The notes beneath the pieces were generated by a model. The model saw only the letters and a program-made list of their open reading frames with translations, searched no databases and was not told the origin of the DNA. The position numbers were made by a program, and so were the translations under genes. Below are positions 1,311 through 48,199 of a stretch of 64,000 bases of DNA, piece after piece. Each line of letters starts with the position of its first letter. The stretch's first letter is position 1. The stretch comes from Octopus sinensis (lineage: Eukaryota). The DNA lies in NCBI RefSeq assembly GCF_006345805.1, contig NC_042998.1, positions 188,604,001 to 188,668,000 on the forward strand. The letters are read 5' to 3'.

Positions 1311-2396
1311 TTAAATTTAAATGTGAAGTGAATCTAACAGGTTTTGTATGTTTCTTAAATGGCTTATAAACACCTTCCACGCTGCAATTGTTTTTGTTCC
1401 AGCACACGATCTCAGATCAAGTCACTTGCTATGCAAGTACATCTCCGTAATATATATATATATATAATATATTATATATATATATATATATATATATATT
1501 ATATATTATATATATATATTATATATATACATATATATTATATATTACGTGTGTGCGTATAATGTCTCTCTCTCTCTCTCTCTCTCACTATATATATATA
1601 TCTTATAATACATATATTTCTTTGAAAAGGGCTACCTCGATCTCGAAAGTTCCAGAGGAAAATCTAATTCCGTGGAAAGCGCCATAACTACGGGAGGTAA
1701 GAAAATGTGTTTCAGATTTTTATTAATTTTTGAAACCCTTATTATATTCATCGCTTTATGAGACATGTATTATTTTTTCAATTACATTTAATAAAATCAC
1801 GTCTATTAAAACTGGTCACGTGGTTACAATTTTATAGTTTTATTGGAAACTGTAACTGCATCTATTACAATATTCCTGGGACATTACACATCGCACCCAG
1901 TGAATGTTTTGCTTTGGTTTAGTAACATTGAACAAATTTAGTTTAAATTGTTCTCTGGTTAGATAAGAGACTATATCTCTTTAAAATTAAAATTTGCGAA
2001 GATGTTATAGCTATTTTCAAAATATTAGGTAACGGAAATGATTAAACTAAATGATCTAGAAAGACAAATCTAAGTGCATAACTGCATTCAATTTAAACAA
2101 AACTAGCTCATCACTGTTCGTATCTTGAACATATATACTGATATATTGCTTGGTAAGGAACTGACAGAGAAATAACATATTTTGGAATATCAAAAGTATT
2201 CAGGCCAAACTAATTCTCATTTTCTTTTGAAAAATTCTTTATAGTCGCTAAATTCCATGAATTCAAATTATTACGAAATAAGTCAGCCCAATCGGAACCT
2301 TTGGATTTCAAACAGACATTTAAAAAGTGAAACGAGAATAACTTAAAACACTGTCAACTACTTTTTATTCCTTTCACGGTATTTGAATCAGGAGAA

Positions 2397-2811
2397 GGCG
2401 GCGAGCTGGCAGAAACGTTAGCACGCCAGGCGAAATGCTTAGCGGTATTTCGTCTGCTGCTACGTTCTGAGTTCAAATTCCGCCGAGGTTGACTTTGCCT
2501 TTCATCCTTTCGGGGTCGATTAAATAAGTACCAGTTACGCACTGGGGTCGATATAATCGACTTAATCCGTTTGTCTGTCCTTGTTTGTCCTCTCTGTGTT
2601 TAGCCTCTTGTGGGTAGTAAAGAAATAGGTATTTCGTCTGCCGCTACGTTCTGAGTTAAAATTCCGCCAAGGTCGACTTTGCCTTTCATCCTTTCGGAGT
2701 CGATAAATTAAGTACCAGTTACGCACTGGGGTCGATATAATCGACTTAATCCGTTTGCCTGTCCTTGTTTGTTCTCTCTGTGTTTAGCCCCTTGTGGGTA
2801 GTAAAGAAATA
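2397..2811 (+). mobile_element. tRNA-derived SINE family A, one head plus two tandem bodies
   Basis: Head GGCGGCGAGCTGGCAGAAACGTTAGC, B-box-like GAGTTCAAATTCC, body of about 184 bp repeated twice; 15-bp TSD GGTATTTGAATCAGG at 2378-2392 and 2812-2826. Confidence 0.9.
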
Positions 2812-3029
2812 GGTATTTGAATCAGGTAACTTTTGTCGTATACATATGAATAGTGAGTTCAAATACAGGAGATGATATTAGCAAGTAGTGGACAAAAACA
2901 TCTTTTATGAGCTGTTTCAAGCTTAGAACAAAATTCACAGGAGATAATCCAACAGAGGATATACTTCGCTGCGACATCTCTGTTGTTTACACCAGTTAGT
3001 TACACAACCAGGTCCACTATGTTGGTTAT

Positions 3030-3333
3030 CACGTGATCACGTGACTGACCAGTCCATCAGATGTTGTTACATATCGCTGGTCACAATGCGTTCGCATTGT
3101 TTTAGCCTTCGAATGACGCCACCCCGCTGGCTAAGCGAGCAGACCAACAGTAGAAAGAGCGGGAGAAAGAGTGGTGAAAGAGTACAGCAGGGATCACCAC
3201 CCCCTGCCGGAGCCTCGTGGAGCTTTTAGGTGTTTTCGCTCAATAAACACTCACAACGCCCGGTCTGGGAATCGAAACTGCGATCCTACGACAGCGAGTC
3301 CGCTGCCCTAACCACTGGGCCGTTGCGCCTCCA
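3030..3333 (-). mobile_element. tRNA-derived SINE family B (tail type 1)
   Basis: A-box-like CGGCCCAGTGG and B-box-like GTTTCGATTCC on minus strand; TSD ATGTTGGTTAT; homologous to 20507-20757 and 36377-36680. Confidence 0.9.
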
Positions 3334-4064
3334 CATGTTGGTTATACTATCCAAAAGTATTGATTCATTTAATTACCTCCCTTGCTTGTTGCTTTGGCTT
3401 TGAAACTCTCCTATAGGAAGTATCTAACTACTAATTGCTTTGATAATTTCGGTTGATCGACATTATCCAACCCAAATCATTATATATAGGAGAACCTAGC
3501 ATATTTGTATGTAGTATGTAGAATGCTCCGTTGCACTATTTTTTCTCAGCCACCTCACGAGCGTACAAAATAGATTATACAACATACAATGCGCAAATTT
3601 ACATATATATCGACATCCATCAACTTAAAGCAACATGCAACTCGATTTTGTAGAACATATATTTTAAAAAAAGTCTAAGGGAGGTAATTCTTAACGGGAA
3701 ATATTTTGAGTGATCTTTAAACATAGACAGTGTTTTAAACATAGACTTTAAACATAGACAGTGTTTTAAACCAAGAAAATTGAATAATCTATTATTTTAT
3801 TTTCTTTCATTACACATCTAAACTTTTCTTCTAAATTCCGCTATTTTGGGGTGTGGTACGTAAAAGCTATTACGAAAGAACAGGAATCTTATAAGAATCA
3901 AAATACCGGTGCATATTAGGAAATCCCTCATAAAGATGTTGCTTAAAATAACTACCATTTTTGATAGCGCATGCATTCTAATTAATTGCATTATGAACAA
4001 TTAAATATTATTTAATAAGAATTGTAATGATTATGACACTTAACACGTGTTTTTTTTTCTTCAG

Positions 4065-44966: not shown

Positions 44967-45430
44967 GGCGCAAGAGTGGCTGTGTGGTAAGTAGCTTGCT
45001 TACCAACCACATGGTTCCGGGTTCATTCCTACTGCGTGGCACCTTGGGCAAGTGTCTTCTACTATAGCCTCGGGCCGACCAAAGCCTTGTGAGTGGATTT
45101 GGTAGACGGAAACTGAAAGTAGCCCGTTGTATATATGTATATATATATGTGTGTGTGTGTTTTTGTGTGTTTGTGTGTGTGTGTGTGTGTGTGGTGTGTG
45201 TGTGTGTGTGTGTGTGTGCGTATATGTTTGTGTGTCTGTGTTTGTCCCCCCAACATCGCTTGACAATCGATGGTGGTGTGTTTACGTCCCCTGTAACTTA
45301 GTGGTTCGGCAAAAGAGACCGATAGAATAAGTACTATGCTTACAAAGAATGAGTCCTGGGGTCGATTTGCTCGACTAAAGGCGGTGCTCCATCATGGCCG
45401 CAGTCAAATGACTGAAACAAGTAAAAGAAT
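44967..45430 (+). mobile_element. SINE family C
   Basis: Full-length copy with internal (TG)n. Confidence 0.9.
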
Positions 45431-46459
45431 TATCCAGATAGTATATGGTGGATATGTTCTAAGATTTTTGCGCGTGTATCTGAAGCAGCACCGCCAATAT
45501 GGGAGCAATAATGTAGGTTTTAGTACGGATTTGTAGACGGTTAAAATATTTTCTAGCCATGAAGAGGAAACCTAGCTGTAGAAATGTAAATGAAAATATC
45601 TTATATATAAGGCCACAATCACTAAATCGTTACAAACTTCGAGACCGAACATTTGATGTGAATTTGGTAGTATTAGCTCTGCCTGTTTTGTTTGTGTTGC
45701 AAGATGTAGTACAATTATATTTTCTTGATGTGTGTAATGTCTTTCATTGTACTGTCGAGGCTACGTTGTTTTGGGGGTCACTGTTCATAGAAATGAGGTG
45801 TAATTTCTCTAGAGTGTGTGTAAATGAGATCTACGTGCAAAGGGTGTTAAAGAAATGAAGGGAGGTAGAAACTGTATGGTAGTGTGTGAGGTGACAAACT
45901 TGCAGAAGGAACATTGAAGCCCACAAGGATTAATATAATATGGAGGGTAGAGAAGCACATAGAGAGAGGGTAGAGATAGATCGATAGATAGATAGAGAGG
46001 GGGTAAGGGAGAAATAGAGAGAGATCTGTGAGTGCGCGCGTGCACTCGCGTGTGGCGTGAAAGAAAGGAGGTTGAGTTTTGTGGTTGAACGCCGTAATGA
46101 GATGTCTAACAAGAATATTTTAACTCAAGACACCGGAACTGAATGAAAATTATATCCTGGAATCGTATCTCAGAAATTCTCTTCTGTGACAGGGTTGAAG
46201 TATTTGATGAGATCAATAACACAACTTCCACTAAAGTTTTCAGCAGAACGATGGTGACTCGGATGACAGAGATACTGAATCTGCTATATCAGAATACATT
46301 GCCGTGAAGAGTAAAACGTCGAAGAGTTTGAGAGCGACGCAAGCTCATTCTAAAATGTACGGTTTAATAGAAATTCAAGGAATACCTTCAGAATCGGTCA
46401 TCGTAGGATGAACAGAAATGTCTTTGAACATACTGATGAGATAAAGTGGGGAGAATACT

Positions 46460-46692
46460 TATTTCGTTATTACCCACAAGGAGCTAAACATAGAGGGGAC
46501 AAACAAGGACAGACATAGGTATTAAGTCGATTACATCGACCCAAGTGTGTAACTGGTACTTAATTTATCGACCCCGAAAGGATGAAAGGCAAAGTCGACC
46601 TCGGCGGAATTTGAACTCACAACGTAACGGCAGACGAAATACCGCTAAGCATTTCGCCCGACGTGCTAACGATTCTGCCAGATCGTCGCCTT
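46460..46692 (-). mobile_element. SINE family A monomer
   Basis: Homologous to other A copies; TSD GGGGAGAATACT at 46448-46459 and 46704-46715. Confidence 0.9.
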
Positions 46693-48199
46693 GAAAAGGG
46701 TGGGGGGAGAATACTACGTGCAAAAGTATCTTAGCTGGGGAACTACAGGTAAAAAGACTCTGCAGAGTGGATAAAGGTCGTTTAGAGAAGCAATCATATG
46801 GTCCAGCTGCAATTTTGGACGCAAAAGTGTTTGTAGGTAGCCTAATGCTTGTAATCACCTCTTTCTTTACGATATGGCCATGTTAGGTGAATAACAGTTA
46901 GTGATTGTAGACTTTGACTTTTGTTTGTAGATATTGCAAGCAACATAGCTGTGAACAGACCTGCGACATAGCTGGGAATAGACCATTTGGACATTTTGAA
47001 GTTGGAAATTTTGGTTCCATAAAGGACGAAAGAGAGCTAGACATCTTCAAGAGATTATCAATATCTGCATTTACGAGATTCTGAAAGAAAGACATTTAGA
47101 AATTTAACTTAAAATAACCTAGAAGGTAAGGAGTAAAACAGAATAAAAGAATTCTCGTTGATTCTTGAACCGATCGGAAGGATAGTCAGATTTCACATAT
47201 GTAAAACAAAACATATATGTATAACATAGATAGAGTGAAAATACTCACAGAACTACAGCGTGAGTATTTGAGAGAGAAGAGGGAGGGAGGGGGGAGGGAG
47301 GGGGAGTAAGATAGAATGGGATGCGTGGGATCATGAAAATCGTGGTTTAAAGTTTGGATTGATATAGATCGGTGAGCAACAAAAGCTTTTCCAAATTTTG
47401 AAATAAAAAAATATTCGATTCTATCAAAGCAACGATATTTAGTATATTAATATAAACCAAAAAAATTTCTCTCACAGTTTAGGTACAACTGCCTTCAAGA
47501 GGACCCTCGAACTCAAAATAGCTGGAAATATTTTACAATTCTAATTGCATTAAAAAAACCAAATTAATAAAATGGTTAATCGAAAAATACCGAAATGCAA
47601 AATCAAAATTGATTAGATCAAAAATGGAAATAGAGAATCGAAATAGAAACTAATCACATTTTCATATTTCCGCAAAAACCACATGTCCCTATTAATTGAT
47701 AAATTACAGCAAGGTATTTTGAAATCTACTGACTCAATTTTCCAATATCTTGAAAAAGTTAGGAATTTTGCAGGTGTTTCAAATTTTGGATCGGAATTAC
47801 CTACTACCTATCAACATACATACATACATACATACATACATACATACACATATACATACATACATACATACATGCATGCATACATGCATACAAACGTACG
47901 CACGTACACACATGAATTTACGCATATATATATATATATATATACATATGTAAATATGTATGTACATCGCCTCCCCCACCTCCCAACAACATCACACCAC
48001 ATCACAACACCCCACCCGCACATCAGCACTGACCAATTCCCATCCCCACATTTTCACACCTACACATACACACACGCACACATCCAGACCACCAGCCCTC
48101 TTTCACACGCACATACGTACTCTCTTATACACACATGCACCTTCGTTTGAGGGTCATCTTTACTTTGTTATTTTCCCTACTTCTTCGCGCTCCTGTGTG

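Follow-up and report, generated by a model that had tools for sequence, protein, structure and literature searches.

How does a short interspersed element (SINE) come to insert at a motif that also lies within its own sequence, and does this coincidence account for its tandem arrays? The question is raised by a stretch of 64,000 nucleotides of the Octopus sinensis genome (C2:188604001-188668000, here called the window; the genome is 2.72 Gb), which contains several copies of a repeat that we call SINE A. The original prediction, made from the letters of the window, was that SINE A inserts at RGTAT and targets itself, either because a sequence-preferring endonuclease repeatedly places new copies in old ones with 5' joining guided by homology, or because a concatemeric or circular RNA template primes by microhomology. 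Our results give this self-targeting reading partial support. The explanation that we favour combines RNA-guided target choice, tandem source genes and growth of arrays at the DNA level; judged from sequence, the combination as a whole may hold or fail with about equal probability.

SINE A and its target sites

The SINE A consensus is built from a head of 50 nt and a unit of 184 nt, which begins GGTATTTCGTCTG and ends GTAGTAAAGAAATA, and in our numbering position 51 is the first base of the unit. Four copies with an intact tail (c1-c4) are present in the window. Copy c1 (2394-2811, forward strand) is a dimer composed of the head (2394..2443, 50 nt) and two 184-nt units of the AG_TG subfamily at 2444..2627 and 2628..2811, the second of which is head-less and 94.6% identical to the first. 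A hairpin seen in the alignment lines joins head and unit, with GGCGAAAT in the head as its 5' arm and ATTTCGTC in the unit as its 3' arm. The whole dimer is enclosed by a 15-nt target-site duplication (TSD), GGTATTTGAATCAGG, at 2378..2392 and 2812..2826. Copies c2 and c3 are monomers on the reverse strand. The c2 monomer (head and one unit, 19220..19454) is 92.8% identical to the c1 monomer and has the 15-nt TSD GGTATAGAAGAAAAG at 19205..19219 on its 3' side and at 19458..19472 on its 5' side, where three extra bases (CTC) separate TSD and head. The c3 monomer (46460..46692) has a tail of the GTAAT type and the 12-nt TSD AGTATTCTCCCC, the 3' copy of which lies at 46448..46459 and the 5' copy at 46704..46715, 11 bases away from the head. 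Copy c4 (49179..50738, reverse strand) is an array of a head and eight units for which no TSD was found.

What had been described in the window was borne out. The TSDs of c1-c3, 12-15 bp long, begin immediately after the tail and begin with RGTAT, and the internal GGTATTTCGTCTG of c1 begins at 2444, immediately past the 50-nt head. The outer 3' flank of the c4 array is TATGTCATAGG and not RGTAT, also as described. In c1 the junction 2627/2628 reads AAAGAAATA|GGTATTTCGTCTG, as do four of the seven c4 junctions, and the other three have an extra 15 nt, GGTAGTAAAGAAATA, ahead of GGTATTTCG. These extras lie at 49730..49744 (the unit 5/6 junction, reverse strand), 50294-50308 and 50492-50506.

The wider sample consisted of the window and 180 stretches of 10 kb, 1.864 Mb in total from eight places: block C2 (L001-020, the window and L021-040), B3 (C1:40.0-40.2 Mb, L041-060), B4 (C3:60.0-60.2 Mb, L061-080), B5 (C5:20.0-20.2 Mb, L081-100), B6 (C8:30.0-30.2 Mb, L101-120), B7 (C12:10.0-10.2 Mb, L121-140), B8 (C16:25.0-25.2 Mb, L141-160) and B9 (C20:15.0-15.2 Mb, L161-180). 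The counts below refer to this sample unless they are called genome-wide, and the genome-wide counts of tails, flanks and junctions are exact pattern matches. SINE A is short, dispersed and of very high copy number, with 444 BLAST matches in the sample, and the family has about 10^5 copies genome-wide. Twenty of the 83 single-unit elements with an intact tail are head-less, that is, 5'-truncated. ARAGORN detected no tRNA gene in SINE A, and an Rfam search of the element yielded nothing that reached the gathering score and, at E up to 10, only two matches at the level of chance; a tRNA origin of the head, which was considered, is without support from either. By eye, GAGTTCAAATTCC resembles a B box, and TTTT is present in no SINE A unit.

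The sample contained 179 SINE A 3' ends, of which 75 abut another SINE piece (junctions) and 104 are terminal. The flank bias seen in the window extends to these copies: RGTAT follows 25 of the 104 terminal ends, with 0.2 expected from its background frequency of 0.0019 (binomial p 5e-45), and GGTA, NRTAT and AGAAA follow 27, 49 and 7 ends, with 0.26, 2.9 and 0.31 expected, respectively. Base by base, the terminal flanks have a purine at +2 in 100, T at +3 in 75, A at +4 in 84 and T at +5 in 64. Of 68 full-length elements, 43 have a TSD scoring at least 10, versus 0 of 68 with mismatched flanks; for these TSDs, their length is 11-26 nt with a mode of 15, they start directly after AAATA in 32 of the 43, and their 5' copies begin GGTAT, TATAT, AATAT or AGAAA. 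Organism E (run X18) has a contig that joins window position 2393 to 2828 without the c1 dimer and with a single GGTATTTGAATCAGG, so the target held the motif before the insertion, and contigs of organisms A, C and D pass from the c1 flank into the head. The flank motif is a genuine feature of the target before insertion. There is a bias upstream of the nick as well, with G at -1 in none of 44 sites and A enriched at -2 (22/44) and -3 (23/44), and this holds in all flank classes. SINE A copies are found at AAY|NRTAT sites, and their target duplications measure about 15 bp.

Lineage-dependent flanks and the fixed tandem junction

The first flanking bases depend on the lineage of the copy, as defined by the bases at four diagnostic positions (159 with 175, followed by 221 with 223). 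Among 36 units of the AG_TG lineage, 17 are followed by a position-51 junction and 17 are terminal, the latter with GGTA in 11 and another GG flank in three. The GC_TA lineage behaves in a similar way: six of its 15 units are followed by a position-51 junction, and the nine terminal ones have GGTA (six) or nGTA (three). The 21 GC_TG units include seven followed by a position-51 junction, six of them onto another A unit, and 14 terminal ones, none with GGTA and six with nATAT, while all CA-type units together include none before a position-51 junction and 25 terminal ones, none with GGTA and seven with AGA. The share of GGTA flanks in AG_TG (11/17) differs from that in GC_TG (0/14, Fisher p 1.5e-4) and from that in the CA type (0/25, Fisher p 2.9e-6). 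The same division is seen genome-wide, where the GTAGT tail GGTAGTAAAGAAATA occurs in 79,093 copies, with GGTA next in 46,868 (59.3%) and AGAA next in 1,280 (1.6%), and the GCAAT tail GGCAATAAAGAAATA in 24,756 copies, with GGTA next in 1,309 (5.3%) and AGAA next in 9,500 (38.4%). The tails of AG_TG, GC_TG and GC_TA are near-identical and the share of CpG kept in these lineages is 0.84, 0.87 and 0.90; the CA type is older, with a share of 0.71. Indeed, AG_TG and GC_TG are alike in their last 30 nt and opposite in their flanks. Five of the eight units of the c4 array belong to GC_TG.

Bases between tail and TSD follow the lineage as well. The TSD starts 1-4 nt past the tail in 11 of 43 elements, with the extra bases GG, GGTA, G, T (four times), TAT, A, CAC and CA; all except CAC and CA are prefixes of the lineage motif and are absent from the 5' copy of the TSD, and one more case of templated bases reads GG|TATAGTGG. 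The earlier view that an endonuclease reading RGTAT causes the motif was not supported, since the bases at +1 and +2 are lineage-specific and only the upstream AAY and the purine at +2 are common to all. Because one enzyme context goes together with lineage-specific first bases, pairing of the nicked strand with post-tail RNA explains the data best, and the nicked target strand probably pairs with the RNA bases just past the AAAGAAAUA tail. Another candidate, in which the post-tail GGTAT extends into a pol III terminator (GGTATTTT), was rejected, no T run being found after GGTAT in the lineage flanks.

The tandems share this motif at a fixed junction. As many as 67 of the 75 junctions are at position 51, so that array junctions lie at a fixed rather than a variable position; 62 of them have no extra bases and five follow 6 or 15 extra nt of tail sequence. 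Among the 62 clean junctions, 35 read exactly GGTATTTCG and 27 have one or two mismatches. The remaining junctions comprise six at head position 17/18 (AAATA|AGAAACGTTAGC) and two elsewhere, and since the former correspond to the AGAA class of flanks seen in the CA lineage, the identity of flank motif and internal site holds twice. The exact 29-mer of the junction is present 18,697 times genome-wide, versus 0 for the reversed control, with runs at 184-185 nt among the matches listed. The tandems have a common architecture, a head and n units of 184 nt with the terminal unit reaching the SINE end, and about 40% of A elements have a junction. Most tandems are bounded by one TSD: a single TSD encloses the whole multimer or composite in c1 and in several A-A and A-B elements. 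The tail subfamily varies among the units of 19 of 29 multimers. In 12 multimers the units upstream belong to GG lineages, the last unit is of the CA type and the outer flank is CA-type too, and CA-type units are never found upstream of a position-51 junction in the sample.

Some properties of the junctions and arrays may be recorded beside these counts. The unit junctions (e.g. window 2620-2636) are palindromic, GAAATA GG TATTTC, and the tail end at the junction imitates GGCGAAAT, the 5' arm that pairs with the 3' arm ATTTCGTC in the head hairpin; a stable hairpin at the junction was rejected, its z of 0.86 being indistinguishable from shuffled sequence. Arrays of 6-10 junctions with a spacing of 184-185 nt are found, among the matches listed, at C1:30020862-30022547, C1:15416802-15417757 and C1:16064911-16065859. 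One listed C1 array consists of GCAAT-type units followed by GGTA and so departs from the lineage rule.

Many tandems are composites in which a complete A element precedes positions 51-169 and the tail of family B, an older sister of SINE A found in the window and in blocks B3-B9, which matches it in head and body as far as about position 169 and has tails that end in (ATT)n. The AG_TG marker is present on the A part of 10 of 13 A-B composites, versus 13 of 52 solo copies. Their B parts all come from a single B subfamily, in which about 15 of roughly 25 units (at least 85% identity) have an upstream A attached. In 23 composites the B unit is the older one, by 0.19 in CpG (p 0.0007) and by 0.03 at non-CpG sites (p 0.005). 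Divergence from the composites' own majority line is 0.110 vs 0.061 (p 0.012), mainly from three of 13 elements; as the downstream B unit is much older in at least three of the 13, some composites are two-step events. Family B also provides an internal control for the pairing: (ATT)-phase repeats lie directly upstream of the head in 21 of 63 family-B copies versus a background of 2.1%, so family B seems to land in or beside (ATT)n, and a tail of (ATT)n with a target of (ATT)n is the pattern that pairing would give.

Origin of the tandems and growth of the arrays

Long arrays enlarge by DNA-level duplication of multi-unit blocks. Units 2-4 of c4 are repeated as units 5-7 in a higher-order block of three units, pairwise sharing private variants, and the 15-nt extra is common to the 2/3 and 5/6 junctions. 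The array in L067 of block B4 also repeats a block, of about 390 bp and including a mini-unit. Growth by block duplication follows from both long arrays examined being higher-order repeats. The 15-nt extra is the stretch from the GGTA inside the GTAGT tail to the GGTA after the tail, and because it spans exactly this distance, it appears to be a slippage product between GGTA repeats. The B4 tandem with the ~390-bp block lies at L067:6780 to L068:120 (C3:60,066,781-60,068,120), its mini-unit of 35 nt is made up of GGTATTTCGTCTGCC and the last 20 nt of the SINE, and its final junction, at about head position 25, leads into a unit of family B.

For the formation of the first junction, the explanation that we favour would work as follows. 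The source genes would be tandems, A-A multimers or A-B composites, and the post-tail RNA of the GG lineages (AG_TG, AA_TG and GC_TA) would read GGUA(U). The reverse transcriptase of a long interspersed element (LINE) would start at an A tail, its primer being paired with the opening bases of the unit that follows, and as this primer would anneal to the GGUA of that unit, the flank of the GG lineages would be explained. Daughters would accordingly land at GGTA(T) sites, and those that become sources would hand the preference on. This pairing would also draw insertions to position 51 of older SINEs, where second-strand priming by head homology would yield a head-less junction, and whole tandems could be copied as single units, their transcript being primed at the last or at an internal A tail. 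A more far-reaching version is tentative and, in our estimate, somewhat less probable than not: SINE lineages would carry a heritable 'target-site memory', in which the post-tail bases of the source pair with the nicked target and daughters pass the preference on, and one lineage would have become tandem, taken its own GGUAU, homed into itself and seeded tens of thousands of head-less tandems from which satellite-like arrays arose.

Self-insertion into older copies does occur. Position 51 of SINE A is occasionally hit with a normal TSD, cleanly at B8 64041 (L147 ~4041, TSD GGTATTTCCTCTG) and at B9 34119 (L164 ~4119, TSD GGTATTTCTTG), where the TSD copies share private variants, and less clearly at C2 156919 (L016 ~6919), with a 23-nt TSD and five mismatches. 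The 35-nt mini-unit of L067 resembles a 15-nt TSD followed by the last 20 nt of a truncated copy, and two copies are inserted in antisense SINEs at GGTAC. The sample has 2,701 GGTAT sites, of which 143 (5.3%) are at SINE position 51, so two or three nested cases among about 22 TSD insertions of the GGTAT type is the expected rate. It is unlikely, however, that an RGTAT-preferring LINE endonuclease and serial self-insertion at position 51, with 5' joining by head homology, are the main origin of dimers and arrays. With only that 5.3% of sites, the 62-67 head-less junctions, compared with 20 terminal GGTAT flanks, are about 14-fold in excess of targeting by the motif alone, and the lineage-specific flanks with their shared upstream nick context do not fit an enzyme preference; the two long arrays, both higher-order repeats, speak against serial self-insertion. 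The age gradient that had been expected, with the youngest unit next to the head, was not found: first and last units of 21 A-A multimers differ by 0.02 in CpG (p 0.52), and non-CpG mismatches go the opposite way, being higher in the head-proximal unit (p 0.014). The more diverged B unit of the composites, far older in three of 13, does favour self-insertion, and the strongly diverged old heads of the clean TSD cases fit a course in which conserved heads are resolved without a TSD; an old head fragment lies directly upstream in three of 113 head-bearing A elements. In multimers, divergence at head positions 3-25 is slightly higher than in solo copies (47/836 vs 43/1144, p 0.063), but at non-CpG sites the test for older heads was not significant (p 0.42). 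Among 5'-truncated multimers there was one case usable for telling one-step from two-step formation (block C2 192522), without an old upstream head or a clear TSD.

Microhomology on a concatemeric template, the other route originally proposed, comes closer to the best explanation, apart from its circular version. In a separate, one-step route, target-primed reverse transcription that has reached the GGUAUUU of position 51 would switch by microhomology to a second SINE A RNA at its post-tail GGUA, so that each multimer would arise anew in one insertion. The single TSD around multimers, the differing tails within them, the restriction of units upstream of position-51 junctions to GG lineages in the sample, the slippage-like extras of 6, 8 and 15 nt from tail sequence at junctions and the absence of the c1 dimer as a whole from organism E are all consistent with such a switch, and tandem source genes and one-event template switching fit the tandem facts equally well; the data do not separate the two. 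Nothing accounts, however, for a switch frequent enough to leave a junction in ~40% of A elements, and the much older B unit of some composites is unexplained by a single event; we regard the one-step switch as a little less likely still than self-insertion. It is less probable again that the lineage flanks reflect different partner LINEs or endonuclease variants recognising slightly different tails, without pairing of RNA and target. The subfamily-diagnostic positions 175, 197/202, 221 and 223 do fall within the 3' region at which recognition by a partner enzyme would take place, yet the upstream nick context is equal in all flank classes, AG_TG and GC_TG combine a shared 3' end and similar CpG retention with opposite flanks, and the extra bases at 3' junctions repeat the lineage motif. 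Rolling-circle reverse transcription of a circular RNA of ~184 nt is very improbable as the builder of the arrays. The constant period of 184 nt and the palindromic junction would suit it, but it is contradicted by the tails that differ within 19 of 29 multimers, which show that the units were not identical at birth, and by the A-B composites; moreover, the arrays are higher-order repeats of 3-unit or ~390-bp blocks and the junction hairpin does not stand out from shuffled sequence. Several routes may feed the first head-less junction.

A number of points weigh against pairing past the tail and tandem sources. Most insertions of the GG type have the full GGTA in the target, and bases templated by the RNA are seen in only 2-4 cases. 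Genome-wide, 5.3% of CA tails precede GGTA, some of them within arrays, so the lineage rule is strong but not absolute, and the lineage flank could come from different LINE partners or endonuclease variants. The unit combinations in multimers, including the upstream partners of CA units, are diverse, which favours repeated new formation over a few tandem masters. Equal CpG decay within a multimer lends no support because of a regional confound: co-aging of units was rejected as evidence, since neighbouring independent copies also correlate (Spearman 0.39, versus 0.60 for adjacent units). The sample covers 0.07% of the genome, with 464 kb coming from around the window.

Neighbouring repeats and comparison with known systems

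Matches to the tail alone (L069 ~9158; window 32437-32454) have no adjoining reverse-transcriptase open reading frame on their own strand, and genome searches with their flanks gave other repeats and no partner LINE. A GC-richer stretch of the window at ~31-36 kb contains, at 33536-35708 on the forward strand, frames with RVT_1 (E 2.3e-7) and zf-RVT (E 1.5e-7) domains that resemble a non-LTR element. As a partner this element was rejected, for it has no SINE A tail at its 3' side. At 32425-32760 on the reverse strand lies a repeat of ~335 bp with at least 43 genome matches (40 of 81 candidates scored), some of them closely paired in inverted or direct orientation. Its end, TTTAGCCCCTTGTGGGTA, is identical to 18 nt of the SINE A tail, and the repeat is possibly a relative of the source of that tail. 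Family B is represented in the window by a diverged fragment at 39602..39724 (forward strand, 78% to A positions 53-175) and by two copies at 62050..62403 (forward strand), which are split by an (ATC)n/(ATT)n run and have an A-like head and body and another tail. Dense microsatellites, including (TATG)292 and long (AT)n, occur at 53603-54766, 8401-9130, 13502-13930 and many other places, with 97 rows reported by TRF in 64 kb. CpG retention has a regional component, being correlated between independent SINE A neighbours within 30 kb (Spearman 0.39, n = 82), and CpG-based dating of repeats in this genome is therefore confounded.

SINE tandems and SINE-derived satellites are known from clams, reptiles and rodents, and in the portions of the literature drawn on here their origin is mostly put down to unequal recombination. 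The fixed junction base of SINE A and a target motif that changes with lineage link the choice of target, the 3' end of the template RNA and the birth of tandem repeats. If pairing of RNA and target past the tail is true, a non-autonomous element could set its own insertion preference without any change of enzyme, and a testable route would lead from interspersed repeat to satellite in a family of about 10^5 copies. A limited keyword search of the literature found no other case in which flank bases differ by lineage and go together with a fixed tandem junction, although such cases may exist.

The SINEs OK, OR1 and OR2 of Octopus are tRNA-derived and are attributed to Ohshima and Okada 1994 in the portion of the source used (PMC4758252). 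SINE A, whose host is likewise an octopus, may be the same as one of these families or related to them. In L1 and Alu, the target TTTT/AA anneals to the A-tail, and the motif at the TSD start reflects both endonuclease preference and pairing with the 3' end of the RNA. Unlike these, SINE A would pair through bases that lie outside the element consensus and vary with lineage, which would imply inheritance by read-through or tandem source transcripts. Alu is itself a dimeric SINE amplified as a dimer (PMC10702118, in part). Like dimeric SINEs, SINE A has one TSD per dimer, and its left and right units are often of different subfamilies, with a CA- or B-type unit last; unlike Alu, it has no single fixed dimer, the unit number ranging from 1 to 8 or more in diverse combinations.

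The eel elements UnaL2 and UnaSINE1, a stringent pair of LINE and SINE with a common 3' tail, are, in the part of the report considered, reverse transcribed from a defined 3' element and not from poly(A), with slippage at initiation (PMC1636434). Family B, with its (ATT)n tail and target, fits this pattern, whereas SINE A has no terminal microsatellite and its proposed pairing segment is 2-5 nt long, non-repeated, lineage-varying and located past the tail. The closest likeness in architecture is that of the blood clam tandems TSD1-(SINE)n-TSD1, which have a complete head in the first unit, head-less inner units, a single TSD, 4-15 units and mixed families; they are attributed to unequal recombination, and in the portion of that paper drawn on here a flank motif is not described (PMC11481361). 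SINE A shares with them the complete head of the first unit, the head-less inner units, the single TSD and the possible mixture of families, but its inner units keep a complete tail, the break is at position 51 and the junction motif is the target motif of the lineage. The SINE-derived satellites of squamates and the Dip multimers of jerboas are built of partial-SINE repeats in which the terminal unit is longer, their di- and trimeric patterns suggest growth by blocks, and for squamates a primary duplication followed by amplification is described, as far as the consulted part of the source extends (PMC10702118). Partial-SINE tandems, a terminal unit reaching the SINE end and block growth are common to these and SINE A, whose arrays are, unlike squamate satellites, short (2-10 units seen), dispersed (18,697 exact junctions) and often retroposed units bounded by a TSD. 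The finding thus refines known SINE behaviour and does not describe a new kind of element.

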